Source of the DNA: an uncultured virus (IMG/VR IMGVR_UViG_3300046519_000369)
Lineage: Duplodnaviria; Heunggongvirae; Uroviricota; Caudoviricetes
Reading direction: 5' to 3' (one strand)
IMG/VR virus record: IMGVR_UViG_3300046519_000369
Length of the DNA: 20,000 nucleotides
Shown here in pieces: positions 711 to 17,394 of the stretch; positions within the stretch are counted from its first letter, which is position 1; each line of letters begins with the position of its first letter. The notes under the pieces are model-generated. The model saw nothing but the letters and a program-made list of their open reading frames with translations. It had not been told where the DNA came from and did no database searches. The position numbers were made by a program, and so were the translations under genes.

Positions 711-719
711 TAGTAAATA

Positions 720-750
720 AAGGCTCTAAGTGAAATCTTAGGGCCTTTTT
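720..750 (+). terminator. Rho-independent terminator
   Basis: aaggctctaag-tgaaat-cttagggcctt followed by T run. Confidence 0.75.
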
Positions 751-774
751 ATTTCTTATAAAATTTCTTAAAAA

Positions 775-2607: not shown

Positions 2608-2611
2608 TGAG

Positions 2612-2639
2612 AAAAAAAGCACTCTAGGGTGCTTTTTTT
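2612..2639. terminator. Bidirectional terminator
   Basis: aaaaaaagcactctagggtgcttttttt. Confidence 0.8.
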
Positions 2640-2736
2640 CTTTTTTAGATTACATGTATAACCCAATAAACAACCACAGGCCCTTTGCTTCAATAGCTTA
2701 GGGCATTTTTATTACCTAAATTTTCTGGAGATATAA

Positions 2737-3126
2737 ATGGAACCAGTTTCTACTAGCGGTTTAACAGCACTTTTAAAATTTTACGGTGCAGCAATTATGG
2801 TGACTTTAGCGGTCGCATTAGTTGCTGCAGTTGTTTTGATGACACGTATGCCGCGCTCACCTCAAGAATGGGCCGTGGGGCTCATTTGTACGGTTGTATC
2901 AAGTCTCGCAGGTGGCTCATTTATTATCGTGAAGTGGGGGCTTCATGAATGGGTTACTGATGTGTGGGGAATGATTGCCTTAGGGGGCTTCTTCTTCATA
3001 TGCGGTATTCCCGGCTGGGCTTTAGTTCGATGGATCTTTAACTTCATTGCTAAACAAGAAGGTAAAACAATTGTTGAAGTGATCAAAGAAGTTAAAAAAG
3101 CCAAAGATGATATTCAAAATAGTTAA
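2737..3126 (+). CDS. Phage holin
   Basis: 129 aa, ~3 TM segments, charged C-terminus, GGAG RBS, upstream of the endolysin. Confidence 0.8.
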   Translation: MEPVSTSGLTALLKFYGAAIMVTLAVALVAAVVLMTRMPRSPQEWAVGLICTVVSSLAGGSFIIVKWGLHEWVTDVWGMIALGGFFFICGIPGWALVRWIFNFIAKQEGKTIVEVIKEVKKAKDDIQNS

Positions 3127-3244
3127 CCGCCTTCAGGCGGTATTATTCAATAGTTCACTTATATTTCTGTCATCTGTCGGAATTAATCAAATGATTTAGA
3201 GACTTGTTTATACTAAATGTTCAAAATAAAAACAGGATAACGCC

Positions 3245-4117
3245 GTGAAAAAGATAATTTTAGCAACAGTAATGGGTTTCAGTGGAGTAGGTAGTGCTTT
3301 TGCCGAGTGTACCTATAGCTTTGATGCAACTTTACAGGATTTAAAAGCATTAGAAGCAGCAGTAGGTGGAAGTACATCAAATTACCGATATATTGAGAAA
3401 GTTGCCAATATAAATAGCGCTAATCAATCTGGTTATGATCTTATAAATTATTACTCAAATAAAAATGTTGACTTATATTTAGCTTCTAAAAAGTATGCTC
3501 AATTTAAAACCCAGTATCATCTTAAAACTCCAGATAATGTTGTTTTAATTGATAAGCCTATTGCCACTTCAAATATCTTTGTCCAAGAATTTGTTTTTGA
3601 TGTTAGCAATTTGCAAGTCAATCTTGGTACTACTTCGCAAATTTATAATTACGGTTTTTTAGTCACAGGTTCTTCTCAGAGCAAAATAGAATTAGCCTTA
3701 AACGTAATTTTTGTTAAAGCAAATAATTATTCAGGCGCGATAAATGGTAATTCTATTACTGTGTTGGGTGTAACTAATAAATCAGATGGTACAGGTTATC
3801 TAGCGCCTTTAAGTGCCGCTAGCACAAATATTCCTGTACAAATACCAGCTGATGGAAAGGTCAGAGTGGGCATTTATGTAAACCAAAATAGCAAACAAGT
3901 TGGTTATATAATTAATGGTACTAACTATGGCTATCTAAATATTGTTATGGAAAACAAATTAAGTAATATCAGCTTTACTGGTGTAATTAATCAAAATCCA
4001 TTTGCTAACTCTGCTTTGACTGGTAAAACGGTTGGGCTTCAATTGGTTACAGATAAGTCTAAAATGCAGTTTACTTATCCTACTGGAGCTAAGGATATTT
4101 GTGGAGTAGCGTTGTAA
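3245..4117 (+). CDS. Secreted protein, DUF4882-like (moron)
   Basis: Signal peptide (..SAFA-ECTYSFDAT), N- and C-terminal Cys, beta-rich; resembles Acinetobacter DUF4882 proteins from memory; flanked by hairpins at ~3125-3141 and ~4151-4168. Confidence 0.6.
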   Translation: MKKIILATVMGFSGVGSAFAECTYSFDATLQDLKALEAAVGGSTSNYRYIEKVANINSANQSGYDLINYYSNKNVDLYLASKKYAQFKTQYHLKTPDNVVLIDKPIATSNIFVQEFVFDVSNLQVNLGTTSQIYNYGFLVTGSSQSKIELALNVIFVKANNYSGAINGNSITVLGVTNKSDGTGYLAPLSAASTNIPVQIPADGKVRVGIYVNQNSKQVGYIINGTNYGYLNIVMENKLSNISFTGVINQNPFANSALTGKTVGLQLVTDKSKMQFTYPTGAKDICGVAL

Positions 4118-4329
4118 AACTGCGAATTAAATTAGCTATTTTTTCTCAACAGCCACCTTCGGGTGGTTCTATTTTATAAAAGAGTAGTTTTGAGGTTTAA
4201 TTTATTTTTATTAAGTGATTGAAAGTATTGTATTATTTTTTAGTAATAGTTAAAATCTTCGTCACTTTTAATAATATTAATTTTATTAAAATTTCATATA
4301 AATATTTGATTAGTATAAGGGTGTTTTAA

Positions 4330-4668
4330 ATGTTGAGATGGCTTATCTTTCTTGTTATTCCTATCATGCTTCCAGGTTCTTTATATCCTCTGTTGATTGA
4401 GTTAACTAAAGCATTTAATGACATAGCTCAAAGAGTTGTTGCCCTTATAGTTATGTATATTGTAGCTGCTTTTATTGCTGCGACAGTAACTTATGAAAAT
4501 AATCCATATGGTAATAAATTGAAACCTGTCATTGTAGTGTTATCAATTGGAGCATTATTATTTTTTATTTCTTCCAAAACTTTAATCGCGATTATTTATC
4601 TTATTGCAAGTATATTTATAGTTGTAAAGTGGCATAAGAAATTTAAGGATAAACCTTTGCCAAATTGA
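4330..4668 (+). CDS. Small multi-TM membrane protein (moron)
   Basis: 112 aa, ~4 hydrophobic segments, very AT-rich leader, own terminator. Confidence 0.65.
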   Translation: MLRWLIFLVIPIMLPGSLYPLLIELTKAFNDIAQRVVALIVMYIVAAFIAATVTYENNPYGNKLKPVIVVLSIGALLFFISSKTLIAIIYLIASIFIVVKWHKKFKDKPLPN

Positions 4669-4702
4669 ATAGCAATTTAACTAGTTAAGAATATTTCAAC
4701 CT

Positions 4703-4724
4703 AACCCGCATATGCGGGTTTTTT
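4703..4724 (+). terminator. Rho-independent terminator
   Basis: aacccgc-atat-gcgggtttttt. Confidence 0.8.
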
Positions 4725-4743
4725 ACGTCCAAAGGAAAGTGAA

Positions 4744-5289
4744 ATGAACATTGAACAATATCTTGAAGAATTGATTAAACGCGAAGGTGGTTACGTGAAT
4801 AACCCTGCTGACCGTGGTGGCGCAACTAAGTACGGTATTACTGAAGCAGTTGCTCGAGCAAACGGGTTTAAAGCCAGTATGAAAGACTTACCTCTTGAGG
4901 TGGCCAAGTCTATTTATCGTAAACAATACTGGATCTCACCGCGTTTTGATCAGGTGAATGCCGTTTCTTCTGCAGTAGCTGAAGAGTTATTAGATACCGG
5001 TGTGAACTGTGGTACCGGCTTTACAAAACCACTTTTACAGCGTGCATTAAACCTACTGAATAATCAGGGTAAAGCAGGGTGGTCAGATTTAACTGTTGAT
5101 GGAATTTATGGTCCAGCGACATTAAATGCACTAAAAACTTTTCTGGCCAAACGTGGGAAAGATGGGGAGAAGGTTTTGCTTCGAATACTCAACATCATGC
5201 AAGGCCAGCGTTACATTGAAATTTGTGAACGTAATCCAAGCCAAGAACAATTCTTTTACGGTTGGATTGCTAACCGAGTTTCATTATGA
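4744..5289 (+). CDS. Endolysin, glycoside hydrolase family 108 with C-terminal peptidoglycan-binding domain
   Basis: EGGYVNNPADRGGATKYGIT motif, VDGIYGPATL, FFYGWIANRV end. Confidence 0.95.
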   Translation: MNIEQYLEELIKREGGYVNNPADRGGATKYGITEAVARANGFKASMKDLPLEVAKSIYRKQYWISPRFDQVNAVSSAVAEELLDTGVNCGTGFTKPLLQRALNLLNNQGKAGWSDLTVDGIYGPATLNALKTFLAKRGKDGEKVLLRILNIMQGQRYIEICERNPSQEQFFYGWIANRVSL

Positions 5290-5384
5290 AGGTTCTGGTT
5301 TTGCTGTGCATTTTGCTTTCAAGATGCACAGCTCATACTATCAATAATAATGTGAATGTGGGTATTTGTGTGAAAGCTCTCTGA
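5286..5384 (+). CDS. 32-aa lipoprotein-like lysis-cassette peptide (not in ORF track)
   Basis: MKVLVLLCILLSRCTAHTINNNVNVGICVKAL*; ATGA overlap with the endolysin stop; homologous copies at 7490 and 8598. Confidence 0.75.
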   Translation: MKVLVLLCILLSRCTAHTINNNVNVGICVKAL

Positions 5385-5398
5385 CGAGGGCTTTTTTT
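5373..5398 (+). terminator. Lysis cassette terminator
   Basis: aaagctctc-tgac-gagggcttttttt. Confidence 0.8.
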
Positions 5399-5495
5399 AT
5401 AAATAATTTTAACTGTAAAATCTAGAGCATAATTGACCATACTAACTTAAATAGCAGTAACTTTCATGCTAAATGGATTAGTTATTTTACATATA

Positions 5496-5918
5496 TTAGT
5501 CCAGAAGCCCAGCTATCCAGAAACCATGATTTGCGCAACTATCGGGAATAGAAGGGGTGACATGTGTAGATTTTACTTCATCTAATAGGCCACCGCCTAT
5601 TGATATTTCTTCGCCAATTAAAACAGATCGATTTGAAAAACTATTGGTAATTTTAAATATACCATTTCCTAGGTTTTCTAATTTGCTGCCATAGCGCCAA
5701 ATAATTAATGGACCCGTTTCATCGCCGAGTCTGATACATCCATTTTTATCTGCATAAAGCTTTCCATGTGCTGAGGCCATCATTGAAATATTACTTCTAG
5801 TATTGCTTGTGATAAGTATCGGTTGAATAGAGACCTCTTCATTGTTAGCTATAATAGGCTTTATCATGCAAGAAGTAACACTAATAGTCATTAACGATGC
5901 TAAGAGTTGTATTTTCAT
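5496..5918 (-). CDS. Lipoprotein, hypothetical (immunity-like)
   Basis: Lipobox-like VTSC; GKL...GCIRL...LIIW...IGEEISIGGG...IPDSC. Confidence 0.7.
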   Translation of the reverse strand: MKIQLLASLMTISVTSCMIKPIIANNEEVSIQPILITSNTRSNISMMASAHGKLYADKNGCIRLGDETGPLIIWRYGSKLENLGNGIFKITNSFSNRSVLIGEEISIGGGLLDEVKSTHVTPSIPDSCANHGFWIAGLLD

Positions 5919-5930
5919 ATAAGGGCTTTT

Positions 5931-6359
5931 TTACTTTTTAGTAATAGGTTCTATAAGTTGATTGATAATAACACCTTTACTTAGATCACATGCTGGTTCG
6001 GGTTTAACGATCCAGTTGTAGTCATTCAAATTAAGTGCATAAGCTTCTCCACTACCATAAGCAATAGTATCACCCTCTTTATATTCTTTTGAGTCAACAA
6101 TTAAAAGATGCTTATTGCTATCCCAATGAGCATCTTTAGTTGCGAAAACAGGAAGGACTCGATCACTTTCATGCATTAAATAAACACACGAATCTTCAAT
6201 TTTGATTTGTGCCTCGCTATAGCTTGCATTATCAGCAACGCCTGAGTAAGCAATTTTTGGCACAATAACCTTATTTTGAGGCTGAGAAGGATTAATACAT
6301 CCATTAAGCAAGATGACTAATCCAGTTAGAAAAGTGATTAAAATATTTTGTTTATTCAT
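5931..6359 (-). CDS. Lipoprotein, probable distant paralog of 5496..5918
   Basis: Lipobox LNGC; SCVYL...LPVF...EGDTIAYGSG...EPAC. Confidence 0.7.
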   Translation of the reverse strand: MNKQNILITFLTGLVILLNGCINPSQPQNKVIVPKIAYSGVADNASYSEAQIKIEDSCVYLMHESDRVLPVFATKDAHWDSNKHLLIVDSKEYKEGDTIAYGSGEAYALNLNDYNWIVKPEPACDLSKGVIINQLIEPITKK

Positions 6360-6515
6360 ACTTAATATACTAATGAAAAGCCTAAATTATAAAATTCGTC
6401 AGTAGACAGGTAATAGTATTCATTACATTGCCTAACTCTAGCACACGAGATAAGATTGATAGAATTTCATCAATAAAAGTTGATAAATAAAATGACTATA
6501 GTTTAGGAAAGATGA

Positions 6516-6884
6516 ATGGAAAGCGAATATACATATAGTTGTCTTTTAGCTGATAGAGGTATTCCACTATCATTAATCAATCCTGGAAGTACTGAGGTAG
6601 CTTTATATTTTGATGATGCTCTAATGGCTTTGGAAATGCATAAAAAAAATAAAACTATAATTTTAGGGGGGGATGTACTAATAGAAAAAGATGGTGAATT
6701 AATGTACGTATATCAATTATGGGGAAATGAGTATATTTATCTAAATTGGTATTTTGAACCTAATCAGAATAACTTGTCAGATTGTTACATGGCGAGTCAT
6801 GAAGCTGCTCTTAAGAACCTCTGTGAAATTAAAAAAAATAGTGATCAGTTCAAAACAACTTGCCTTATTGTTTTTGTTATCTAA
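6516..6884 (+). CDS. Imm40-like polymorphic-toxin immunity protein
   Basis: GIPL...EVAL..DDAL..L...ILGGDV...NWY...S pattern characteristic of Imm40. Confidence 0.75.
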   Translation: MESEYTYSCLLADRGIPLSLINPGSTEVALYFDDALMALEMHKKNKTIILGGDVLIEKDGELMYVYQLWGNEYIYLNWYFEPNQNNLSDCYMASHEAALKNLCEIKKNSDQFKTTCLIVFVI

Positions 6885-7048
6885 TTATTGTTTCCAACTA
6901 AAGTCACCTAATTTTTACTTTTTCTATAGAAAAAATTAACTTATTTCGGTTTGCAATTAGTCTTATTTATATATCAAAGCCTTATTATAAATAAGCTGGG
7001 ATATTTTTTTAGATTAAAATTTAAACTTATTCATTTAAAGAGAAAACT

Positions 7049-7423
7049 ATGGCTAATATTAAAATTCATGCGGGCGACTTCAATAAAGGAAAAGGAACTA
7101 TAAGTTTCATGTTTGGTAATTGTTCAATTACTCCTCCTTATGGTGACGGTGATAAATGGGCACCAACATCACATCCTATTGTTTCTGGGAATATTGAGGA
7201 AATATCCTTAGCCACGGAAGAGAATGTAAAAAGAATTGGTGGCACAGTTGGATGGGGGATTGCTGGGGCTGCTCTACTTGGTCCTTTAGGTTTATTGGCT
7301 GGTCTACTATTAGGTGGAAAAGGAAAAGATGTAACATTCATCTTAAAACTTAAAGATGGTAGAAAAATGCTAGCAACAACTGATAGTAAGTCATATACAA
7401 AACTTTCCGCTTTAGCTTTTTAA
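7049..7423 (+). CDS. Hypothetical protein with glycine-zipper membrane segment
   Basis: GGTVGWGIAGAALLGPLGLLAGLLLGG between beta-rich segments. Confidence 0.75.
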   Translation: MANIKIHAGDFNKGKGTISFMFGNCSITPPYGDGDKWAPTSHPIVSGNIEEISLATEENVKRIGGTVGWGIAGAALLGPLGLLAGLLLGGKGKDVTFILKLKDGRKMLATTDSKSYTKLSALAF

Positions 7424-7427
7424 ACCG

Positions 7428-7493
7428 ATTGAAATCTGTGAGCGCAACCCAAGCCAGGAGCAATTCTTTTATAGCTGGATTGCTTCACTATGA
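7428..7493 (+). pseudogene. Endolysin 3'-end remnant
   Basis: IEICERNPSQEQFFYSWIASL* versus endolysin IEICERNPSQEQFFYGWIANRVSL*; many synonymous changes and a 9-nt deletion. Confidence 0.9.
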
Positions 7494-7588
7494 AATTTCT
7501 GGTTTTGCTGTGCATTCTATTTTCAGGATGCACAGCTCATCCTATAAGTACAAATGTGAATACTTCTATTTGCGTTAGATCACTTTAA
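7490..7588 (+). CDS. Second copy of the 32-aa lipoprotein-like peptide
   Basis: MKFLVLLCILFSGCTAHPISTNVNTSICVRSL*, followed by ccctga-tttc-tcaggg hairpin. Confidence 0.7.
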   Translation: MKFLVLLCILFSGCTAHPISTNVNTSICVRSL

Positions 7589-7784
7589 AAAAATCCCTGA
7601 TTTCTCAGGGCTCAGTTTTCCTTAAATAAAGGTACCTTTTGGTCATCATAATTGCCCTCTATCCCAATTAGAGCGTGAAATTGGCTATGATATTTTCGGT
7701 TTAGAAGGATACTTAGATGGTGGATCACATCACATAGTGAATTTTTTGATAATTTAATCAAAACCAGAGGCTAAGATAACTAAT

Positions 7785-7807
7785 AAAAAAGGGGCTTTTC
7801 GCCCCTT
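7785..7807 (-). terminator. Terminator for 7827..8246
   Basis: aaaaaaggggc-tttc-gcccctt type hairpin with A run on the left. Confidence 0.75.
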
Positions 7808-7826
7808 AATTATTTAAACTTCTTTT

Positions 7827-8246
7827 TTATTTACTTTTGAAAATATAAATACCACTAAGAATTAAGAACATAGCTTGGAATAAAAACCATCCAAGTGTTG
7901 AATAATTAGAACACTTAGTGATGGAATCATAAATAATCTCCTTATAAGATACGGTTTCCATCATGTTTAGTAGTATTAATTCAGCTAATAATAGAACTAG
8001 AGAAATAACAGTGTAAAAATACTTATTTCTTATAAAAATTAAAATTATTGAAACGATGATCGATAATAAGCCACACATCCCTAACATTGATGGATCATTA
8101 GCTGAAACCCCATTTAACTCTTTAAAATAGGTAATAGTGCCTATAGCAATATATTCATTAATACATAAATCTTGCCCAAACTTATCTATCGTATATCCGC
8201 CTATACCTGATAAGAATAAAAATAATATGGCTACATATCTAATCAT
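7827..8246 (-). CDS. Orphan multi-TM immunity protein, paralog of 9451..9894
   Basis: YFKELNGVSANDPSMLGMCGLLSIIVSIILIFIRN aligns with YLRDMQGSADDDSVLIWFFGIISVVLGLIMFFVKN; starts 3 nt after the effector remnant stop. Confidence 0.75.
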   Translation of the reverse strand: MIRYVAILFLFLSGIGGYTIDKFGQDLCINEYIAIGTITYFKELNGVSANDPSMLGMCGLLSIIVSIILIFIRNKYFYTVISLVLLLAELILLNMMETVSYKEIIYDSITKCSNYSTLGWFLFQAMFLILSGIYIFKSK

Positions 8247-8249
8247 AAT

Positions 8250-8594
8250 TTACAAACTCAATTTTAATGATGGATCAAATTTCCATGTTTCAACTTGTAG
8301 TTCTGGATCTGCTCGGCAAGTTCCTTGGCATCCATCTGGAATTGCTATTACATCACCATTTGCATCTGTACAGATCACAACAAAAGTTTCATAGAGCCAA
8401 TCAGGATTCCTTTTATCAATGTTCATCAACTCTGCTGTTAATCCTACTTGCATCTCTCCAAAGCCATAGCTGTTATGAGGGTAGACTTCACCTAAGTTAA
8501 GATAAAAGGATAAGAGGTTTTTTCTATAAGCCCATACACCATGCATTTTTTCTTCAAATACAATAGATGCAACGATCTGAGGATCTATTACATT
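8250..8594 (-). pseudogene. Truncated, internally deleted lytic transglycosylase effector remnant
   Basis: Frame extends upstream of 8546: IDPQIVASIVFEEK...PHNSYGFGEMQVGLTAEL...NGDVIAIPDGCQGTC matches VDPLAVGSIIFQEK...PHRSYGLGEMQLGLAADL...NGIIYSKPDNCEAC of 9891..10889. Confidence 0.85.
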
Positions 8595-8595
8595 T

Positions 8596-8688
8596 GATGC
8601 TCAGCTAATACGATCAATAGCAATGTGAATGTATCAATCTGCGTTAGAGCACTTTAAAAAAAGCCCTGAGGGATCAGGGCTATTTTTG
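8596..8688 (+). pseudogene. Third, 5'-truncated copy of the small lipoprotein plus terminator
   Basis: CSANTINSNVNVSICVRAL* (8598-8657), then agccctga-ggga-tcagggct. Confidence 0.85.
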
Positions 8689-8689
8689 T

Positions 8690-9319
8690 CTAGTTTTCAA
8701 ATTCCACATTATAAAGGGATGTTAAAGATGCCTTTAATTTTTCATCTTTAGTTTCTGCAATGTACTCTTGCATTTTCTCTTTATACTCAGGGTGTCCAGC
8801 TTTATATTTTGCATACAAGTATGAGAACTCGCCTATCTTATAATCAGGGTCGGTCTTGTTTTCGGGTTTATCTAGTTCCACTTTTAGAACTTCTGCAACG
8901 TGGTCATAGCACTTATTAACCAAAGTACTTTCTTTCTTTTGTAAAGTTAGTAGCTGACATCTAAATGTAAGTCTTGCTGTGTCATTTGGTTTCTCTGCAA
9001 GTTGCTTATCATTCAATGCTTGTGCTTCTTCATATTTTTGCAAAGTCATGTAGATATTCATTTGCATAAATTCACGTTTTTTCTTATCCGAAATCTTACT
9101 GACTTCGGGCAATACTTCTACCATCTTTTTTTGAAATTCTTCAAAGTTACCCTCGCGGTAATATTTAAAGTAACTTTCATATTTATCAATGATTTTCTGA
9201 TCTTCGGCAGATATCAGCTTAGGTGCTGTGATTTCGCTTTGTTTTGTACTATCCGAAGCATTGCTACAGCCACCAAGAAATGATGAATAAACGATAAATA
9301 GGGTTAAATACTTTTTCAT
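8690..9319 (-). CDS. Helical (TPR-like) lipoprotein, probable orphan periplasmic immunity protein
   Basis: Lipobox LGGC; IYMTLQKYEEAQAL...KPND TPR-like helix pair; context. Confidence 0.65.
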   Translation of the reverse strand: MKKYLTLFIVYSSFLGGCSNASDSTKQSEITAPKLISAEDQKIIDKYESYFKYYREGNFEEFQKKMVEVLPEVSKISDKKKREFMQMNIYMTLQKYEEAQALNDKQLAEKPNDTARLTFRCQLLTLQKKESTLVNKCYDHVAEVLKVELDKPENKTDPDYKIGEFSYLYAKYKAGHPEYKEKMQEYIAETKDEKLKASLTSLYNVEFEN

Positions 9320-9386
9320 ACTTATGATTGAGTCTGCTTTAGAGGGGACGCCTTTTTCTGGACCACATTTAGATTAAATGTATTAT

Positions 9387-9415
9387 AAAAAGCCCTAAAT
9401 AATTAGGGCTTTTTT
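9387..9415. terminator. Bidirectional terminator
   Basis: aaaaagcccta-aataat-tagggcttttt. Confidence 0.8.
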
Positions 9416-9416
9416 C

Positions 9417-9444
9417 TTGAGTATAGAGATATCTCTATACTCAA
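9417..9444. repeat. Perfect 28-bp palindrome
   Basis: ttgagtatagagat|atctctatactcaa. Confidence 0.95.
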
Positions 9445-9450
9445 ATTCCA

Positions 9451-9894
9451 TTATGCTTCTTTAGGTTTATGTTTAATATTCAATAATATGAATAAAATGG
9501 TATAAATAAGTAAGGAAATAAGCCACAGAATTAAATAAATATTTTGATCGAATTTAATAGTATTTATAACAAGTTGGTTGATTGGATCACTTTCAGCTAA
9601 AAATGCGCTTAAAAATAAGAAGATATAAACAAAAAAACCTATTCTTAAAACATAAGTTATATTTTTAACAAAGAACATAATAAGGCCAAGTACGACACTT
9701 ATAATTCCAAAGAACCATATTAAAACACTATCGTCATCTGCTGAGCCTTGCATGTCTCTTAAATAAATATATTCATCTACGCCGTAAGGGGCAAAAGTCA
9801 CAAATCCTTTAGATAAGGATTCAAAGCAAATGGCTAAAATGCCCGATACTATCAATACGATAGCCAAGTAATATTTTAAGTTTAGAGTTTTCAT
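9451..9894 (-). CDS. Multi-TM cognate immunity protein candidate
   Basis: ~4 TM segments; ATGA overlap with the effector stop. Confidence 0.75.
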   Translation of the reverse strand: MKTLNLKYYLAIVLIVSGILAICFESLSKGFVTFAPYGVDEYIYLRDMQGSADDDSVLIWFFGIISVVLGLIMFFVKNITYVLRIGFFVYIFLFLSAFLAESDPINQLVINTIKFDQNIYLILWLISLLIYTILFILLNIKHKPKEA

Positions 9895-10889
9895 ATTCCT
9901 GTATATCCTTCCCCAGCTTTCCAGTATTTATGCAATGTGCGTGGGGTTGCGGTACATGCTTCACAATTATCCGGTTTAGAATAAATAATACCGTTTAAAG
10001 CTTGTTTAATGGATTCTTGCCAATTTCTTGATCGATTATAAACTCTAGAGGGACTATCAAAACTAGCCTTATTAGTTGAAGGATCCAGATAAGAATCTAA
10101 ACCCTTCTCACCAGCATTGTGCAGTATTGTAGCTTCCCTAGGGGTGAGCTGGCGGCCTAATTTTAATTGCTTTAAAGAAATATTCTTAGCGACAAGATCA
10201 GTTGCTACTTGAGGGTCGTTAGTGATGAGGTCAAATGTCTTTCTAAGCCTATTTGGGTCACTCTCCAGATAACCTAGCAGATCTGCGGCCAAACCTAATT
10301 GCATTTCACCAAGTCCATAGCTTCTATGAGGTTTAACGCCTCCGCGGTCTTTCGCATATGCAATATAGTTCTTGGCGATGGCTGCTGCTGAAAAGAATTT
10401 TTCCTGAAAAATAATTGAACCAACAGCCAACGGATCCACACCATACTTTGCTGCGGAGGTATTAATGGCTGCATTGTAATAGGCAACCATATTTAAGCCA
10501 TCCGGTGCTGGTACTGAACGATTAACCATAACATGATCAAGATTGTGGTCTTTTTCTTGGCTAGTTTTATGAGCAACTAATTTAACTTGATGTACTGTGT
10601 GCGTTACGCTACTGCCTGATTCTTTCGTGTATGTAGTGCCAACGAAAGGTTGGGGCTCTAACAATCTACCAGTCGGCAAGTACACATTAAATCGAACAGT
10701 ACAGTTTTTAGCATTTTCATTTTTCTGAAGTGGGAAACTTGTCTCTACAGATATACCTGAAGGGTTGATTTTCAACTTGCCCGTTTCAAACTTTCTACCA
10801 GTATCTTGCGCGATAAATAAAGCAGAAAATGAGAAGTTGGTATAATCGCCTAATCCTCTTAATCTCAACTGTGCATAACATGTACTCAT
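9891..10889 (-). CDS. Putative T6SS peptidoglycan-targeting effector (SLT/lysozyme-like fold)
   Basis: AAKYGVDPLAVGSIIFQE (catalytic Glu), SYGLGEMQ, LHNAG resemble SLT motifs I-III; no signal peptide; ATGA-coupled to the VgrG tip. Confidence 0.75.
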   Translation of the reverse strand: MSTCYAQLRLRGLGDYTNFSFSALFIAQDTGRKFETGKLKINPSGISVETSFPLQKNENAKNCTVRFNVYLPTGRLLEPQPFVGTTYTKESGSSVTHTVHQVKLVAHKTSQEKDHNLDHVMVNRSVPAPDGLNMVAYYNAAINTSAAKYGVDPLAVGSIIFQEKFFSAAAIAKNYIAYAKDRGGVKPHRSYGLGEMQLGLAADLLGYLESDPNRLRKTFDLITNDPQVATDLVAKNISLKQLKLGRQLTPREATILHNAGEKGLDSYLDPSTNKASFDSPSRVYNRSRNWQESIKQALNGIIYSKPDNCEACTATPRTLHKYWKAGEGYTGI

Positions 10890-11257
10890 TCTGTGTCTTC
10901 CTCACTTGGCGGCACAGGATCCGGATAATCATGGTTCTCTAAAAGATGGAAAGACATTTGTTCTTCTTTCTGGGTATATATCCGTTGAGTGTAGCCATTT
11001 TCATCAGTCATACCTTCAAATTGCCTACCTGATTCTGATATTGCGAAATATGCTTTATTTTTATAGGGTGCATTTTGATTATCAATTAATTGAACACTTA
11101 AATTAAATATACCTTTACTTTCGGGTAATACTGGAAAGTGGCTAACAACTTGTTCACCCGACTTGAATATATGTTGACCAGCTTTAACCTCAAATTTACC
11201 TCCCGTTATTATCGTAATACCTTTATCATTAATTACAATACGTGAACCACCCGCCAT
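10886..11257 (-). CDS. vgrG: VgrG C-terminal fragment (end of DUF2345 plus transthyretin-like extension); possibly a pseudogene
   Basis: AGGSRIVINDKGITIITGGKFEVKAGQHIF is the Acinetobacter-type VgrG tail; PYKNKAY...EGMTDENGYTQRI is a TTR-like domain; no gp27/gp5 body upstream. Confidence 0.85.
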   Translation of the reverse strand: MAGGSRIVINDKGITIITGGKFEVKAGQHIFKSGEQVVSHFPVLPESKGIFNLSVQLIDNQNAPYKNKAYFAISESGRQFEGMTDENGYTQRIYTQKEEQMSFHLLENHDYPDPVPPSEEDTE

Positions 11258-11329
11258 ACTTTTTTATTCTCAAATTTAAATTTATGTGATTAGAATAACA
11301 TAACTTGTTTAAACTCAAAAAATACACTT

Positions 11330-12031
11330 ATGACCATGATTGTTTCGGCGCATCTCGGAGATTGTATACTGATTGCCGCTGATAAAAGAGCGATGGTATA
11401 TGATATAAACTCTGGATTATTAAGAATATCTCATGATGATGAGGCGAAAATAAAGTTATGGTGCCGTGGTGCTATTACAGGCACAGGAGACAGTTTATTT
11501 ATAAATCGTATAATGAATTATTTTGAAAATTTAACAGAACAAGAACAAAAACTTGAACAAGTGAATGCTATTCAAATGGAAATAGAAAGAAGATTGTCTG
11601 AAGGGGTTCCAAAAGAGCTTCTTTCTAATAATACGCTTATATTCTCAATATTTAATGGCTGTAAAACCTCATTATATATAATACCCATACAGCCATTTTT
11701 TGAGACATTTAAACTTGGTAGTCGCGAACATTTAAGGTCCCAAGTTAATGAAATTAAAGAATGGACCATAGAGGTATGCTGTTTAAATATTCCTTCCGAT
11801 TTAGCATTATTACAAGACTTCCAGCGCAATTTAAGGAGCTTAAATAGCTTTGAAAGTGAGGGGCAATTCATTAGTTACTATATAGAGCATTTAAAGACTA
11901 TTTTTGCGAAACAAGCTTCTATAGATACTAGTGTTACACCGTCTTTTGACCTGTATTTACAATCATGTGAGACTGGAGGTAGCTTTGCCATTCATATTGA
12001 GAACAACTTTTTAACAACTTCAAATGTGTAA
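11330..12031 (+). CDS. Proteasome beta/HslV-like Ntn hydrolase
   Basis: M-T start, TMIVSA...DCILIAADKR, AKI, ITGTGD; matches the Thr1/Asp17/Arg19/Lys33/Gly47 pattern. Confidence 0.7.
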   Translation: MTMIVSAHLGDCILIAADKRAMVYDINSGLLRISHDDEAKIKLWCRGAITGTGDSLFINRIMNYFENLTEQEQKLEQVNAIQMEIERRLSEGVPKELLSNNTLIFSIFNGCKTSLYIIPIQPFFETFKLGSREHLRSQVNEIKEWTIEVCCLNIPSDLALLQDFQRNLRSLNSFESEGQFISYYIEHLKTIFAKQASIDTSVTPSFDLYLQSCETGGSFAIHIENNFLTTSNV

Positions 12032-12092
12032 TATTTTGCCCATTGGTCCAACTGGACCAAGATTAACTAAGTTATTTTTGGCTCGAAAGAAT

Positions 12093-12221
12093 TATTTGGC
12101 CAAACGTGGGAAAGAAGGCGCGAAATTTTTAGTCTGAGTTCTCAACATTATCCAAGAACAGCGTTACATCGAAATCGGTGAACGTAATCCCTCTCAGAAG
12201 CAATTCTAACCGTATTTCATG
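12093..12221 (+). pseudogene. Endolysin 3'-end remnant (decayed)
   Basis: YLAKRGKEGAKFLV*VLNIIQEQRYIEIGERNPSQKQF versus FLAKRGKDGEKVLLRILNIMQGQRYIEICERNPSQEQF. Confidence 0.9.
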
Positions 12222-12234
12222 ATCTATTAAAAAT

Positions 12235-12268
12235 TATTTTGCTAGACGAATTTCAGTCTAGCAAAATA
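12235..12268. terminator. Hairpin between convergent units
   Basis: tattttgctagac-gaatttca-gtctagcaaaata. Confidence 0.6.
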
Positions 12269-12279
12269 TATATGAATGT

Positions 12280-13056
12280 TTACTTAAAAATTAATGCTCT
12301 CGAAACACGAATAGAATCATATAGAAAATGATTAACTTCGGTATTTAGAGCTGGATGAAAGTCAGGTATGGTCTGTTCAAAGTTTGTAGGTATAGAAAAA
12401 CGACTAATATATAATGGGATTAAATATCTCTCATCGTAAACAATAATATTTCTTTCATCTCCCGAACTGCACAAAACCAAAGCTGATTCACCTAATTGTA
12501 AATAAAATTTAAATCTAAATCCTGATCCATCATCATCAATAATTTGATTTTCATATAATTCTTGCCAACCATCTAAATGATTAATACTGAAAATTTTGTC
12601 ATTTAAAAATGGTGTTACAAAGAGATAGACATTTTCTGAAGGTTTTTTTGTTTTAAAAAAATCATGATAAAAGTTTAATTTTTTTTCTTTGAAAGAGCTT
12701 GGACCAGTAGCGAAGAAATTTAGAAAAATCTTATATATAAGAATTCTTAGTTTTTCTACACACTCTCGATTTAGAAAGTCTTTAGGATCCTTCCCATCTA
12801 TCATAACTTCTAGGAGATCTTTGCATGATTCATCAATATCACATAACCATCCATTATTACAGGATGCACAAACTTTATGGGTAAAAGTGTGTGGAATAGG
12901 AGTTGTTGGCTTAAAGACTTCAAGATTTTCTGATATTGAAGTAAAAGATAACTGCTTTTTTTTAATATCTAATTTTTTTATTACCCATTGAGGAATAACA
13001 TGTTCATTTGTTTTTTCTTTACCAGAAATCTCAGTTTTGCAATAAATGCATTCCAT
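12280..13056 (-). CDS. HNH endonuclease-domain protein
   Basis: CIYC...NEHVIPQW...VCASCNNGW. Confidence 0.85.
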   Translation of the reverse strand: MECIYCKTEISGKEKTNEHVIPQWVIKKLDIKKKQLSFTSISENLEVFKPTTPIPHTFTHKVCASCNNGWLCDIDESCKDLLEVMIDGKDPKDFLNRECVEKLRILIYKIFLNFFATGPSSFKEKKLNFYHDFFKTKKPSENVYLFVTPFLNDKIFSINHLDGWQELYENQIIDDDGSGFRFKFYLQLGESALVLCSSGDERNIIVYDERYLIPLYISRFSIPTNFEQTIPDFHPALNTEVNHFLYDSIRVSRALIFK

Positions 13057-13124
13057 TTTAACTATTCCTAGTTTTTGAATTTAAAATATTAATTATATAC
13101 AGGTGGTTGATATTGCTAAAGATA

Positions 13125-13571
13125 CTATTTTTTATAATACTCAGAATAAAATTTTTTCTTAATTGTAGGTATTAAACTCATTAGATGAGACCAACCTGTA
13201 TCGATAGATTTTGTATGAATATTAATTGAAAATTCCTTGTTTAGCGGGTATACACTTTTATCAATTAGCTTAAAAGGCTCATTAATATCATCAAACTGGT
13301 GGGCTGTTAGATCAATAATACTATTTTCAGACTCTAACCAAAAATGGTGTGCATCATCTGTGTTAGTTCCCCTCATCATTTTAAAATTAGAATATTCTTC
13401 TTCTTCTAATATACTTAACAAAATACTAGATACTTCCTCACAATAGTTTCTAGGAAATGTTTGAATCCTGCCATAAGAAGGCAGTTCTTTTTGAAAACAC
13501 TCTAAAGCGCTGACAATAATTTCAATTAGTTTTTCATGTTCATTCATATTAGATCTCTTATTAATCACCAA
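13125..13571 (-). CDS. Papain/transglutaminase-like Cys-His-Asp protein (start possibly 13547)
   Basis: FPRNYC...HHFWLE...IIDLTAHQF. Confidence 0.65.
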   Translation of the reverse strand: MVINKRSNMNEHEKLIEIIVSALECFQKELPSYGRIQTFPRNYCEEVSSILLSILEEEEYSNFKMMRGTNTDDAHHFWLESENSIIDLTAHQFDDINEPFKLIDKSVYPLNKEFSINIHTKSIDTGWSHLMSLIPTIKKKFYSEYYKK

Positions 13572-13596
13572 CTATTCCTAAAATTAGAATCATTAA

Positions 13597-13917
13597 CTAT
13601 TCTTCACTTATACATTTAAATCTGATTTCTGTTTTAGGAAAGTTACCCAAAATGTAAGGTGGTTTTGCATCAATGGCTTCTAAGACACTAACAGATTTAA
13701 TTGTTTTCTGGCATTATTGATATGCTTCTTTCATTGTATCTGCTTTAAGTGTTCCCATCCCACTAAAACCGGTAGCAGCTTGACGTGAGACCATATAAGT
13801 ATTATTTCCCATAGGTACAATACCTGAATTTGCAGCGCACCCTACAATTAGAAAACTATAAATTGTAATCAAGATTTTTTTATTAAAAGAAGCAGTAAGC
13901 ATGAAATTTTGATCCAA
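13597..13917 (-). pseudogene. Lipoprotein interrupted by an in-frame stop
   Basis: Lipobox IVGC; after TAA at 13714-13716 the frame continues CQKTIKSVSVLEAIDAKPPYILGNFPKTEIRFKCISEE* to 13597. Confidence 0.8.
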
Positions 13918-14029
13918 TAAACAAGTTTTTAAAGTAAATCTTACTTAAGATTACTACTTATTTTTCTATGTGACAATTAGTAACCAATTTGTTAGATTAT
14001 GTGAACTTTATAAAAAACATTGAAAATTC

Positions 14030-14473
14030 ATGAAGAAAATATTAGTTACTAGTTTAATTGGATTGGCTTTAGGTGGGTGTACATCAATCCAAGTTAATAA
14101 TGCCACTGGATTTAATCCTGAGTCTATTCGACAAGTTTGTGTTGTTGACAACCCGAAAGTTGTCATCAAGGATTTTAATCAAATCATCGAGCGAAGTTTT
14201 AAACGCTATAATATTGATGCTAAAACTTATAAGGATACTGATAACTTAAGTCTTTGTCAGACGACTTTGAACTATACAGCTACTCGTTCTTGGGATATGG
14301 CTCCATATATGGTTGCTGCTCAATTCAATCTTTTGCAGAATGGCAGACAAGTTTCTGAAGCATCTTTTAGATTACGTGGAAATGGTGGACTAGCCCCAAA
14401 TAAATGGCGTAGTACCGAAACGAAGATTAATGAGTTGGTTGATCAGTTGTTAAATAAAGTACAATCGAAGTGA
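14030..14473 (+). CDS. Sbal_3080-like lipoprotein
   Basis: Lipobox LGGC; VCVVDNPKV...YTATRSWDMAPY...KW...KINELVDQL. Confidence 0.75.
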   Translation: MKKILVTSLIGLALGGCTSIQVNNATGFNPESIRQVCVVDNPKVVIKDFNQIIERSFKRYNIDAKTYKDTDNLSLCQTTLNYTATRSWDMAPYMVAAQFNLLQNGRQVSEASFRLRGNGGLAPNKWRSTETKINELVDQLLNKVQSK

Positions 14474-14483
14474 GTTATCTAAA

Positions 14484-14972
14484 ATGAAAAAGATTATTTT
14501 TACTTTAGTTCTTGGGTGGATTGTTTCATCATCTGCATTTTGTCAAATTATTTGGCAAAATGCAGAGAAAGGAATGAGTGTTGCTCAAGTTAAGAAAAAC
14601 TTTCCTAAAGCTCAGAGTGTTCAGCCAACTGATGGAACAACATTAGGGGACGGGGCTCTAAGATTATTAGAGTTGTCAGACTATGATATTAATAATTTCA
14701 AATTTGATGCATTTTTCTATTTTAAGGATGCCAAATTAATACAAGTTACCTTAAAAGCCAAGGATTCAGAAAATCAGGCTCTTGTTTATAAAAAAATGGT
14801 TGAGGCATTTCGCATGAAATATGGCGAAGAAAAATCAACTAATAATATGAGTATTGGACAAGAAAAACGTTGGATAACGAAGGATAAAACTGAAATAACT
14901 GTTTCTTTGTTAGGTGGCGATATGAATATTTATTATTCAGCCCGAATCGGTAATGAGCTAAATAAAATATAA
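14484..14972 (+). CDS. Secreted/periplasmic hypothetical protein
   Basis: Signal peptide; WQNAEKGMSVAQVK...F...KL..V...KYGE. Confidence 0.7.
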   Translation: MKKIIFTLVLGWIVSSSAFCQIIWQNAEKGMSVAQVKKNFPKAQSVQPTDGTTLGDGALRLLELSDYDINNFKFDAFFYFKDAKLIQVTLKAKDSENQALVYKKMVEAFRMKYGEEKSTNNMSIGQEKRWITKDKTEITVSLLGGDMNIYYSARIGNELNKI

Positions 14973-15004
14973 TCAAAAGGAAAATTAGCAAGTTCATTAG
15001 CTAA

Positions 15005-15033
15005 TAAAAAAGCACCTTAGGGTGCTTTTTTTA
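15005..15033. terminator. Bidirectional terminator
   Basis: aaaaaagcacc-tta-gggtgcttttttt. Confidence 0.75.
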
Positions 15034-15349
15034 AATTATTATGAATTTCTTTAATTAACTCATCAACCTCTAAGTTTGATACTTCAACTTCAGTTTCATT
15101 ATTGATTGTAAACTTTTTAATTTTACTTGCTTTATATGAGTTGATAAGCCATGTTGCAAGGGTTTTAAGCACATCATATGATGCTCCGGCCGCAACACCA
15201 ATTACTATATCGTATAAAGCGCTATCACAAGTTAGCCCATTATAATTTCGAGGTACCACAGTTAATTTAAAATTAGAATTCAATAAATTATCTTTCTGGA
15301 AAGAGGCAATATCCTCAATAAATATCTTGTTAAATTCAATTTTTTGCAT
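15017..15349 (-). CDS. Hypothetical protein with central small-residue hydrophobic helix
   Basis: 110 aa, GAGAG RBS; IVIGVAAGASYDVLKTLATWL. Confidence 0.6.
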   Translation of the reverse strand: MQKIEFNKIFIEDIASFQKDNLLNSNFKLTVVPRNYNGLTCDSALYDIVIGVAAGASYDVLKTLATWLINSYKASKIKKFTINNETEVEVSNLEVDELIKEIHNNLKKAP

Positions 15350-15418
15350 GATTTCTCTCTTTTTATGTTTTCGACATTTTAATTAGTTTTCTTAAAGTAG
15401 AGGATATCCGGTTCCCCA

Positions 15419-15868
15419 TCATTCCTTATCCTTATGTACATAATGATCTTCAACAATCAGCCAACCAAGACTTTTTTTACCATTATCTACAACATCAATA
15501 TGATTGTTGCCTTTATAAACCAGAACATCTTTATTAAAAAACTTCAATGAATTCCAGAAAGAAGAGTTACTCAAAACTTCCAGAGATAGATGGATATCAT
15601 CACGAAGACTTGAAAGTCCCTGTGTGTAATCCAAATCAAGCGTATTCAACAATTTCCCATAAATGACACGCTTTTTACCATCTTTTAACGGGATTATTCT
15701 GACATCAGCTTGGTTGTTGCTAAAATTAGTCGCCGGTAAAAAACTCTCTTCTAGACGATGTACTGCTTCAGCATTTATTGATCTACCGCTTTCTTTAGCC
15801 GCATCTTCAACTTGTTGTTTGAGTTCTTGTGGAACACGTAAATTAAATTGAGGATCTGTTCTAGCCAT
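15419..15868 (-). CDS. Arc-family ribbon-helix-helix repressor (Mnt-like position) with C-terminal extension
   Basis: MARTDPQFNLRVPQELKQQVEDAAKESGRSINAEAVHRLEES. Confidence 0.9.
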   Translation of the reverse strand: MARTDPQFNLRVPQELKQQVEDAAKESGRSINAEAVHRLEESFLPATNFSNNQADVRIIPLKDGKKRVIYGKLLNTLDLDYTQGLSSLRDDIHLSLEVLSNSSFWNSLKFFNKDVLVYKGNNHIDVVDNGKKSLGWLIVEDHYVHKDKE

Positions 15869-15903
15869 CAAAGTGAAGTCCAAAAATTTTTATAAGAATA
15901 TGC

Positions 15904-15957
15904 TAGTACCGTGCTTGACTTCAATATTAGCACCGTAATAGTATTATCACCGTGATA
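15904..15957. promoter_or_regulatory. Divergent promoter region with three 13-bp operator-like palindromes
   Basis: tagtaccgtgctt 15904, tagcaccgtaata 15928, tatcaccgtgata 15945; TTGACT 15915 and TAGTAT 15939 (18-bp spacer). Confidence 0.7.
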
Positions 15958-15976
15958 TCACAAAACGGAACACTAT

Positions 15977-16132
15977 ATGGCTAGAAACGATAAACAATTA
16001 AATGTTCGTATGCCTTGCGAATTGATTGAAGAGCTAAAAAAGAATGCTGAACAAAGCAGACGTTCATTAACAGCTCAATTAAATTTCATTATCGAAGAGT
16101 GGCTAAAAGATCAGCCTAAAATCATTAAATAG
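15977..16132 (+). CDS. Arc-family repressor, 51 aa (not in ORF track)
   Basis: MARNDKQLNVRMPCELIEELKKNAEQSRRSLTAQLNFIIEEWLKDQPKIIK*. Confidence 0.9.
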   Translation: MARNDKQLNVRMPCELIEELKKNAEQSRRSLTAQLNFIIEEWLKDQPKIIK

Positions 16133-16200
16133 AAAAACAATGAAGCCCCTGAATCTTGGCGGACTAGGGGCTTCTATCCAACTCGGTTAGGAGATCAGAT

Positions 16201-17004
16201 ATGACAAGTCTAGCATTAACATTTAATGAAGTGAACTTACACCCAATTTCTATAGAGGATGGGCAGGTGTGGATAGGGGCAACCCAAATTGGGTTAGCCT
16301 TAAGATACGCAAATCCTGAAACGGCTGTAATTAAACTGTTTAATCGAAATATTGAAGAGTTTTCTACAAATATGACTCGGTTAGTAGAAATGAAAACAAA
16401 TGGTGGTTTGCAATCTATAAGAGTTTTTTCACTTCGAGGTTGCCATCTTATTGCTATGTTCGCAAAAACTGCGATTGCTAAAGAATTCCGTAAATGGGTT
16501 TTAGATATTCTAGATCGGGAAGTTCAACCAAAACATAAAACTCACAAATCTGAACGTGTATCACTTAACGATGCCATTCACTTACTAGTGGCCAAAACTA
16601 AAAACCTGAACTTCTCTGATGCCTACAAACTGGTGCACCAGCGTTTTGGTGTAGAAGGCATAGATGAAATTTCTTTTGATGAGATTCCTGTAGCGGTTGA
16701 ATATGTTCACCACCTAATTGCTCTTATGAGCAATAAAAACGGTAATACAGGACTAGACACCAACGTTAAAGCTATGGCGATATACCTAGCTTGGTTAAGC
16801 GGGTGGTGGAGACAGTTTGGCCCTGCGGTAAGAGGTATTAATCCGCATATGGCCGCAGCAATCCATGATTATTTTAATGATGGAGGCTTTGTCGCTTGGT
16901 CATTTATTGAAAAAGATAAGAGAGCCGAGCTACATAAACGTATAGATACTCATCCTTGGCATTTACCACCAATGGATCGTTATCATTTGCTAAATAGAAA
17001 CTAA
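16201..17004 (+). CDS. Phage antirepressor (Bro-N domain; P22 Ant-like arrangement)
   Basis: QVWI...IGLALRY...RVFSLRGCHLIAMFAKTAIAKEFRKWVLDILD; AGGAG RBS. Confidence 0.9.
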   Translation: MTSLALTFNEVNLHPISIEDGQVWIGATQIGLALRYANPETAVIKLFNRNIEEFSTNMTRLVEMKTNGGLQSIRVFSLRGCHLIAMFAKTAIAKEFRKWVLDILDREVQPKHKTHKSERVSLNDAIHLLVAKTKNLNFSDAYKLVHQRFGVEGIDEISFDEIPVAVEYVHHLIALMSNKNGNTGLDTNVKAMAIYLAWLSGWWRQFGPAVRGINPHMAAAIHDYFNDGGFVAWSFIEKDKRAELHKRIDTHPWHLPPMDRYHLLNRN

Positions 17005-17011
17005 TAGTTCA

Positions 17012-17040
17012 GTGGAGATGACGGGAGTTGAACCCGCGTC
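17012..17040 (-). other. tmRNA (ssrA)-like 3'-end fragment, att-like site
   Basis: Minus strand GACGCGGGTTCAACTCCCGTCATCTCCAC: T-arm plus acceptor 3' strand with U at the G3-U70 position and A discriminator; no 5' part of the RNA adjacent. Confidence 0.85.
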
Positions 17041-17043
17041 TTT

Positions 17044-17069
17044 AAGAGCTCTCTTCGGAGGGCTTTTTT
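17044..17069 (+). terminator. Rho-independent terminator
   Basis: aagagctctc-ttcg-gagggctttttt. Confidence 0.85.
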
Positions 17070-17394
17070 ATGTAATGAGCATATAAAAACTAGAAAAATA
17101 ATATTTTTATGCTTTTGTAATTCCTATCAAATATCAGTACAAAAATGACTCCAATAGATGTAATGTCTAGATGGTTATTTACATGAAAATTACAACATCT
17201 TAAAAAAGAAATCTTTATATAAAGCTTCAAAATAGATGTTGTCACTTATGTCAGTAAAATGATTATTAGATTTAACTGTTTTGCAAGAATTTTGCATTTA
17301 TTTTGCAGGACATCGAAATAAATCTAATAAACTTAAAATTAATCAAATAGATATGGAATTTCTAAAATATTTATTCTTTATGGAGAAAGAATAT

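Follow-up and report, generated by a model that had tools for sequence, protein, structure and literature searches.

A mobile Acinetobacter cassette pairing a VgrG-tail mini-protein with a predicted proteasome-beta-like enzyme

The stretch of DNA analysed here (the window, 20,000 nucleotides) comes from an uncultured virus of the Caudoviricetes (IMG/VR record IMGVR_UViG_3300046519_000369) and is the end of an Acinetobacter-type prophage. It contains a four-gene mobile cassette that is common in Acinetobacter. One gene encodes a mini-protein, here called the tip, that corresponds to the tail of VgrG, the spike protein of type VI secretion systems (T6SS). It is followed by genes for a predicted cell-wall effector and a putative immunity protein, and is faced by a divergent gene for a predicted proteasome-beta-like N-terminal nucleophile (Ntn) enzyme. 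We propose, giving the idea about an even chance of being right, that the tip replaces the tail of the host VgrG at the protein level. An earlier reading of the window's sequence (below, the original prediction) had described a three-gene unit; those three genes stand, and the divergent fourth gene, which changes the likely mechanism, had been missed.

The tip gene and its enzyme partner

The tip, effector and immunity genes are three minus-strand open reading frames (ORFs) coupled, as originally described, by 4-nt ATGA overlaps at both junctions (Table 1). The tip opens with M-AGGS, and its residues 2–34 align with the final 33 DUF2345 positions (E 5.9e-5, which falls short of the Pfam cut-off); the C-terminal extension is homologous as well, and the gp27 and OB/gp5 domains of VgrG are absent from the 123 residues. 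Thus the gene indeed starts at the AGGS of a VgrG tail and lacks the spike body. An in-frame stop lies three codons 5' of the tip ATG, and the preceding 72 bp are intergenic, with no vgrG coding sequence; a sigma-70 promoter scan showed no excess (17 vs 20.9 in shuffles). The tip is truly a VgrG tail, since the locus L004 on a host chromosome encodes a full-length VgrG of 923 aa whose tail is almost the same, and after it come the genes of an effector with 81% identity and of a related membrane/immunity protein. This is the full-length allele that the original prediction had suggested looking for. The L004 VgrG matches TIGR03361, and neither the tip nor any other of the four cassette genes has an NCBIfam match.

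The fourth gene probably encodes a proteasome-beta-like Ntn enzyme; its activity is predicted from the structural model. The AlphaFold2 (AF2) model of the 233-aa protein (pLDDT 90.6) has the Ntn alpha-beta-beta-alpha fold and aligns by VIA with the proteasome beta subunit at Z 15.9 (rmsd 3.6, 183 aligned residues), with Anbu at 15.0, with HslV at 11.6 and with BPH at 11.4; the best Foldseek match has E 3e-7. The predicted catalytic residues are Thr2 (Thr1 once Met is removed), Asp18 and Lys40, and Asp199 is also conserved. In a set of 59 enzymes, 55 of them full-length and tip-linked and four from other genera, 53 have Thr and six have Ser at position 2, while Asp18 and Lys40 are each present in 59/59 and Asp199 in 57/59. 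As judged by alignment position, this pattern fits the proteasome triad Thr1-Lys33-Asp17, with Asp199 probably corresponding to Asp166 (PMC4792962). The enzyme is broken in four of the 59 tip-linked copies.

The enzyme profile, applied to 247 Acinetobacter species genomes, yielded 109 matches and found the enzyme in 59 of the genomes. In the first three related loci examined, a homologue of the divergent 233-aa gene faces the tip in all. With further loci added, 66 distinct enzyme starts had 250 bp or more of sequence upstream and could be assessed; at 59 of these 66 loci the tip is head to head with the enzyme, at a gap of 55–172 bp, mostly 62–97 bp. The seven exceptions are L052, L097, L084 (the contig stops at 290 bp), L083 (inserted ORFs put the tip 2 kb away), the broken L100 and two distant homologues of 196 aa.

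The pairing was also approached from the side of VgrG tails. The tail model yielded 726 matches, the best 150 of which were used; as it was built from tips, its ranking favours them. These tails were crossed with 89 of the 109 enzyme matches, leaving out 20 fragments short of the N-terminal part. Within the best 150, a Met start was found in 53 matches, all in frames of at most 245 aa, and 47 of these 53 have a facing enzyme within 300 bp; the other six are all in genomes with an enzyme elsewhere. None of the 74 full-length VgrG matches has Met at that position or an enzyme alongside, and the idea that the Met is native to VgrG was rejected on this count. Fifteen further vgrG matches start at model positions 2–5 in frames shorter than 800 aa and have no enzyme. 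Separately, an array of vgrG 3' remnants of varied lengths with effector/immunity-like genes and no enzyme (L004:9385-14127) has the appearance of ordinary orphan modules.

Two genomes have a tip-less enzyme and an enzyme-less tip at separate sites (L052/L114 in G061, L097/L116 in G025), which is consistent with action in trans. Cassettes are found in prophages (L001–L003, L005), at many chromosomal positions and on plasmids, which bears out their mobility. A phage-specific module was rejected, as most loci are chromosomal or plasmid-borne; the supply of the module by a phage, as originally suggested, holds for this prophage and does not describe most copies examined.

The tips start in two fixed registers, 42 at AGGS and 14 at (G/S/A)G(K/R)F, 17 residues further along the needle, with three variants (GTG at AGGS, an upstream Met and a leader, one each). 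The truncation point is thus not random; random truncation points were among the outcomes that the original prediction had named as fatal to it. Thr precedes both sites in most full-length VgrGs examined. The second residue of the tip is A, G or S in 56/58, and a small second residue favours removal of the initiator Met. Shine-Dalgarno-like (SD-like) 3-mers precede 49 of 58 tips, compared with 0.20 in shuffles. Over the first 30 codons, synonymous divergence (pS) is 0.23–0.86 and nonsynonymous divergence (pN) 0.03–0.17 (36 pairs); by this measure the head is selected as a protein and is near-saturated at synonymous sites.

Some tips depart from the common form. In L082:833-2215 and L103:1021-2376 they are 451–460 aa long, with the effector domain apparently fused, that is, mini specialised VgrGs. 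In L059–L076 and similar loci, the largest enzyme group, the second register has a Pro after its internal Thr (T-PAK, T-PGK, T-PSK). Host VgrGs mostly have Gly/Ser at this position, and the Pro might shield such tips from second-type enzymes.

Outside Acinetobacter, the enzyme matched 10 genomes in a 401-genome sample of the family, and 12 stretches were examined. In four of these genomes (L131–L134) the tip faces the enzyme and has an 18-aa leader ending in S|AGGS; the L121 tip also has a short leader with this end. The leader end looks like a mimic of the host VgrG site, and such tips are natural candidates for a single-chain substrate of the enzyme. In four Moraxellaceae genomes of another genus, the enzyme is situated inside a T6SS operon, hcp-tssE-tssF-tssG-enzyme-tip-effector, all co-oriented and with the immunity gene included (TssF and TssG were identified by Pfam, hcp and tssE were read from the sequence). 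There the tip begins in the corresponding register of the host's own VgrG type, in which the preceding residue is Asn. The idea that the enzyme gene is merely carried along by a divergent promoter shared with the tip was rejected, since it stays with the tip in this operon. The remaining stretches (G743, G786) are broken or located where a contig ends, and in L161 the tip is upstream of a partial enzyme. The profile had no match in a class-wide sample of 400 genomes, scanning metagenomes for two distant homologues gave no hits, and a homologue on a Vibrio plasmid has no tip annotated nearby.

The second gene of the window operon encodes a predicted antibacterial effector. Its AF2 model (pLDDT 86) consists of an N-terminal beta-sandwich (residues ~1–105) and an SLT/lysozyme-fold domain (~126–309). 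VIA gave Z 10.3 with MltE over 143 residues and 9.6 with Tse3, related structures filling the top ranks; the best Foldseek match reached E 2.5e-3 only, and sequence-level matches are weak (E 0.33). The nearly invariant Glu163 closes helix 153–163 and is the probable catalytic Glu of this lysozyme-like fold. In unrelated bacteria, Rhs-type proteins carry the same catalytic domain as their C-terminal toxin (L012, L016; P0023, P0024). The 147-aa gene follows this effector in L003 and L004 too, and its product has no match in Pfam, PHROG or NCBIfam. The position of such genes after vgrG in L004, L010 and L011 suggests that the effector would be secreted by the T6SS, act in the periplasm and be neutralised by the next gene product. 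The cargo varies among cassettes (LysM, GH19, Tox-REase-5 with DUF4123, VRR-NUC, DUF2515), and much of it has no Pfam match: 10 of the 26 cargo or tip queries matched a Pfam family.

How the cassette may act

Under the proposed mechanism, the tip would be translated alone, and removal of its Met would leave an AGGS... N-terminus equal to that of the fragment released from a VgrG cut at xIT|AGGS. The proteasome-beta-like enzyme would make this cut in the host VgrG, and the tip would replace the native tail. The grafted tail would then load its own SLT-fold effector for the host T6SS, the membrane protein would protect the carrier, and a phage or plasmid would re-arm its host with about 2.6 kb rather than a full vgrG locus. 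Tip replacement is proposed because the processed N-terminus of the tip equals an internal cut product of VgrG and is kept together with an Ntn enzyme, as with Connectase. The latter is an archaeal proteasome-beta-like ligase that joins a Met-processed PGA substrate, via an enzyme conjugate, to a longer protein at the site where the latter is cut (PMC7980362). The two systems have in common the Ntn fold, Thr1/Ser1 and, as proposed here, the Met-processed N-terminus that equals an internal cut product; the cassette enzyme differs in being bacterial and in its candidate site, which is not KDPGA, and its ligase role is hypothetical. Other hallmarks of Connectase are a two-helix lid inserted between strands S3 and S4 and transpeptidation without hydrolysis. 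By this analogy the likelier course of the exchange would be transpeptidation via an acyl-enzyme, making the enzyme a dedicated bacterial protein ligase, a version that we hold tentatively and at clearly less than an even chance. Cleavage followed by non-covalent strand replacement is unlikely.

The cassette is enriched in genomes with a T6SS. TssC was matched in 49 of the 59 enzyme-bearing genomes vs 90 of the 188 others (Fisher p 1e-6, uncorrected for kinship), and in 46 of 52 after dropping seven genomes with fragment-only or distant-type enzymes. A contig from an RNA library (X2) spans all four genes from 9425 on; as contigs show no transcription, strand or level, it was not counted.

A number of points weigh against cleavage and replacement. 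Ten of the 59 enzyme-bearing genomes lack a TssC match. The VgrG needle is an intertwined trimeric beta-helix; the proposed bond is within it and might be out of reach in the folded protein. The putative cut is preceded by varying residues, usually Thr, but Asn in the Moraxella-like VgrG and Ser in the leaders (a strict need for Thr was rejected for this reason), and at site I a number of host VgrGs do not conform. A change from Thr to Met takes one base, which alone could explain the Met. The (G/S/A)G(K/R)F start type goes with a single enzyme clade (13 rows, support 100/98) and represents a single origin. The enzyme correlates with the head (Mantel 0.61) better than with the tail (0.19, 34 loci), and linkage alone is expected to produce the enzyme–head correlation. 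In fold, the enzyme is nearer to the hydrolytic proteasome beta and Anbu (Z 15–16) than to Connectase, whose structures rank 20th and 28th (VIA Z 9.9 and 8.7), and the Connectase Pfam family is not among the families listed for 37 enzyme members at E up to 1. Finally, distant homologues without a tip exist in phage regions or on plasmids (L110, L111, L127–L130, L163). Four of those in phage regions (L127–L130, L110, L111) are near tail genes.

The alternative that comes closest is a rather improbable one, an adaptor that works without VgrG cleavage. The terminal strands of the tip would trimerise or stack on the blunt end of an intact VgrG, with PAAR on their other side, and would bear the effector, while the enzyme would mature the tip or effector, trim leaders or aid assembly. 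The translated and selected head fits such a role, leader-bearing tips would offer the enzyme a non-VgrG substrate, and precedents have been described: TvpC, a gp27-less VgrG-like trimer that mimics VgrG in trans (PMC13373197), and secreted co-effectors (PMC10433429). However, most tips are leaderless and the enzyme is still fully conserved, the short type retains one needle strand only, which is a thin basis for stacking, and the exact-register copying of host sequence, like the tracking of register and enzyme clade, would be left unexplained. It is very improbable that the cassette serves as a DNA donor whose 5' part recombines into the host vgrG, as in orphan modules of Rhs and contact-dependent inhibition (CDI) systems. 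Those modules are silent DNA donors, and the original prediction had likewise cast the 5' ~120 bp as a recombination arm. The full-length vgrG of L004 with this tail, effector and immunity gene speaks for it, as do blocks of 30–45 nt at 80–90% identity to full-length vgrG and clear traces of tail exchange. Indeed, per 30-nt block the window tip matches the L004 vgrG at 15–22/30 in the head and at 26–28/30 from nt 91 on, so that tails have clearly been exchanged in DNA just past the AGQH codons, and two other strains track the window to tip nt 119 and then diverge. Yet the first 90 nt of long-type tips are only 50–66% identical to full-length vgrG, with exact runs of at most 12 nt (the vgrG was from the same genome for the G003 and G005 tips and from G002, another species, for the window tip), and the short type offers 39 nt at 64–77%. 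When 191 genomes were searched with the 93-nt head, 28 matches resulted; the 17 that reach 69% ungapped identity or more are tips without exception, and the 11 vgrG matches have at most 68% ungapped and 71% gapped identity, although the window's own host could carry a closer vgrG. With the head divergent at synonymous sites, tips retaining their own ATG/GTG starts at fixed registers and SD-like motifs, and the enzyme left without a role, the recombination arm is not sustained. Recombination better accounts for the acquisition of tails than for the function of the cassette, and action in trans, the other mode originally offered, is the likely one, as the head is conserved as a protein and not as DNA.

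Defence or sabotage also has a small probability. In this reading the enzyme would clip own or incoming VgrG tails, or the tip would serve as a decoy, and the carrier would profit mainly from the immunity gene. An orphan immunity gene was kept after effector decay (7827-8595), some carriers are without TssC, and a defective VgrG can inhibit the Acinetobacter T6SS, in which the VgrG C terminus is essential (PMC6960284). On the other hand, purifying selection on the effector is strong (dN/dS 0.09 vs L004), its Glu is kept, and many intact effector types are carried, some fused to the tip (L082, L103). The least probable reading is decay, a broken vgrG locus using the first ATG available after the break, with the enzyme gene an unrelated neighbour. 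Remnants of vgrG of varied length without an enzyme do exist (the 15 among the best 150 tail matches and those downstream in L004), and truncated A. baumannii vgrG genes have been called likely non-functional (PMC6833914). But the fixed registers, the absence of Met from all 74 full-length matches, the conserved gap, the SD-like motifs, the purifying selection and a linkage that holds in two layouts and several genera effectively refute it. Explanations other than those named here are, taken together, also of low probability.

Prophage setting and cassette history

A virus record (G001) matches the window at 100% over 1-17494, and no record of the annotated phage collection covers the cassette DNA. 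PADLOC found no match among nine proteins of the window. The features are listed in Table 1.

Table 1. Features of the window (positions in the 20,000-nucleotide stretch)
Feature	Position	Strand	Basis or remark
Tail fibre and tail spike	1-2607		prophage setting
GH108 endolysin	4744-5289		prophage setting
Accessory-gene stack			after the endolysin, before the Arc-like/antirepressor genes
Second endolysin 3'-end and downstream remnant	7428..7561	+	79% to 5215-5357; bounds older cassette
Intact orphan immunity gene of displaced allele, 139 aa	7827..8246	-	in 92%-identical block with L001; four hydrophobic segments
Broken remnant of L001/L005-type effector allele	8247..8595	-	96–97% blocks vs L001; 5' part gone, ~211 nt internal deletion
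Two hairpins (9387-9414, 9417-9444)	9387..9444		self-BLAST palindromes; likely terminator region 3' of tip-effector-immunity operon
Predicted immunity protein, 147 aa	9451..9894	-	four hydrophobic segments; putative function, from position
Predicted antibacterial cell-wall effector, 332 aa	9891..10889	-	SLT/lysozyme fold, from the model
Mini-VgrG tip, 123 aa	10886..11257	-	30-aa conserved head (last needle strands, DUF2345 end) and variable, putatively effector-binding tail
Head-to-head intergenic region, 72 bp	11258..11329		purine-rich stretch like a ribosome-binding site ahead of tip ATG
Predicted proteasome-beta-like Ntn enzyme, 233 aa	11330..12031	+	AF2 model, VIA, Foldseek, conserved residues
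Degenerate endolysin 3' copy flanking cassette	12081..12207	+	76–79% to 5128-5254; same remnant by cassette in L001, L047
Terminator-like hairpin past enzyme gene	12235..12268
Arc-like and antirepressor genes	15419-17004		then GntP permease, dehydrogenase

The loci L001 and L005 have the same enzyme and head and a different effector allele, the allele of which the window retains a broken remnant with its immunity gene. The endolysin 3' remnants on the two sides suggest that the cassette entered by recombination at the endolysin end. Copies of this 3' end and of an 86-nt hairpin-rich element (present directly past the endolysin at 5323-5408) are repeated at 7428-7612, 8596-8681 and 12081-12207. 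They partition the stack of accessory genes (morons) and look like a hot spot at which accessory cassettes recombine.

Several neighbouring genes may be mentioned. Between the two cassettes there is a gene for a 209-aa lipoprotein-like protein (8690-9319, minus strand; phrog_26452) with its own terminator, which could be an orphan immunity gene. Directly past the endolysin are tandem lipoprotein-like ORFs of 140 and 142 aa with no family match (5496-6359, minus strand), and between the holin-like gene and the endolysin are a DUF4882 protein and a small membrane protein (3245-4117 and 4330-4668). A 258-aa protein (12280-13056, minus strand) has an N-terminal HNH_5-like Cys motif (E 0.005) and no PADLOC match.

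Relation to known systems and significance

A variable tail beside its effector, as here, is known from VgrGs that load effectors through C-terminal extensions (DUF2345 with TTR), such as VgrG1-Tle1 of enteroaggregative Escherichia coli and VgrG17-Tae17 of A. baumannii. Tae17 has an N-terminal Ig-like sandwich and a lytic transglycosylase fold (PMC11796386), and the model of the window effector has a similar sandwich plus SLT-fold layout. Unlike in these systems, the tail in the cassette is a separate 123-aa gene without gp27, OB and most of the needle, and its partner is an Ntn enzyme.

The enzyme shares fold and catalytic pattern with Anbu, BPH, HslV and 22 uncharacterised prokaryotic proteasome homologues. 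The survey of the latter reported no informative genomic context for the new families, and its main text does not refer to secretion, Acinetobacter or toxins (PMC8665760). Orphan effector-immunity modules (Rhs/CDI, Vibrio immunity arrays) resemble the cassette in their recombining polymorphic tails and in the orphan immunity left by a displaced allele, as at 7827-8595, and differ from it in that the tips have start codons, SD-like motifs and a protein-selected head. TvpC, Tap/Tec DUF4123, Eag, DUF2169 and co-effectors are likewise small proteins that aid effector loading in trans. However, the descriptions consulted give them no peptidase partner, and a DUF4123 gene is itself cargo in some cassettes; TvpC, moreover, has retained an OB-fold together with an 81-A beta-prism, and VgrG takes its place (PMC13373197).

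Full-text literature searches did not reveal a link between a proteasome-like or Ntn enzyme and VgrG, or mini-tips, in titles and abstract openings, with subscription literature mostly outside their scope. Members may be present in file S2 of PMC6833914 (truncated vgrG) or in the GPH cluster lists of PMC8665760. The enzyme–tip architecture is well supported and apparently undescribed; its chemistry is a hypothesis.

The current view is that T6SS effector repertoires change when genes are gained or when DNA recombines at vgrG loci. If the proposal is true, payloads would also change by a new route, the re-tipping in trans of a spike already present, and short "DUF2345 domain" genes, dismissed as truncated vgrG, would be explained. 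An uncharacterised bacterial proteasome homologue would gain its first genomic context and a testable substrate. The cassette also serves as a marker by which effectors can be located in roughly one in four Acinetobacter species (the enzyme is in 59/247 genomes). If it ligates, it would be a candidate sequence-specific protein ligase and the second proteasome-derived ligase family with a known substrate pair, and phages and plasmids would reprogramme the T6SS payload of their hosts post-translationally, a natural exchange of warheads at the protein level.

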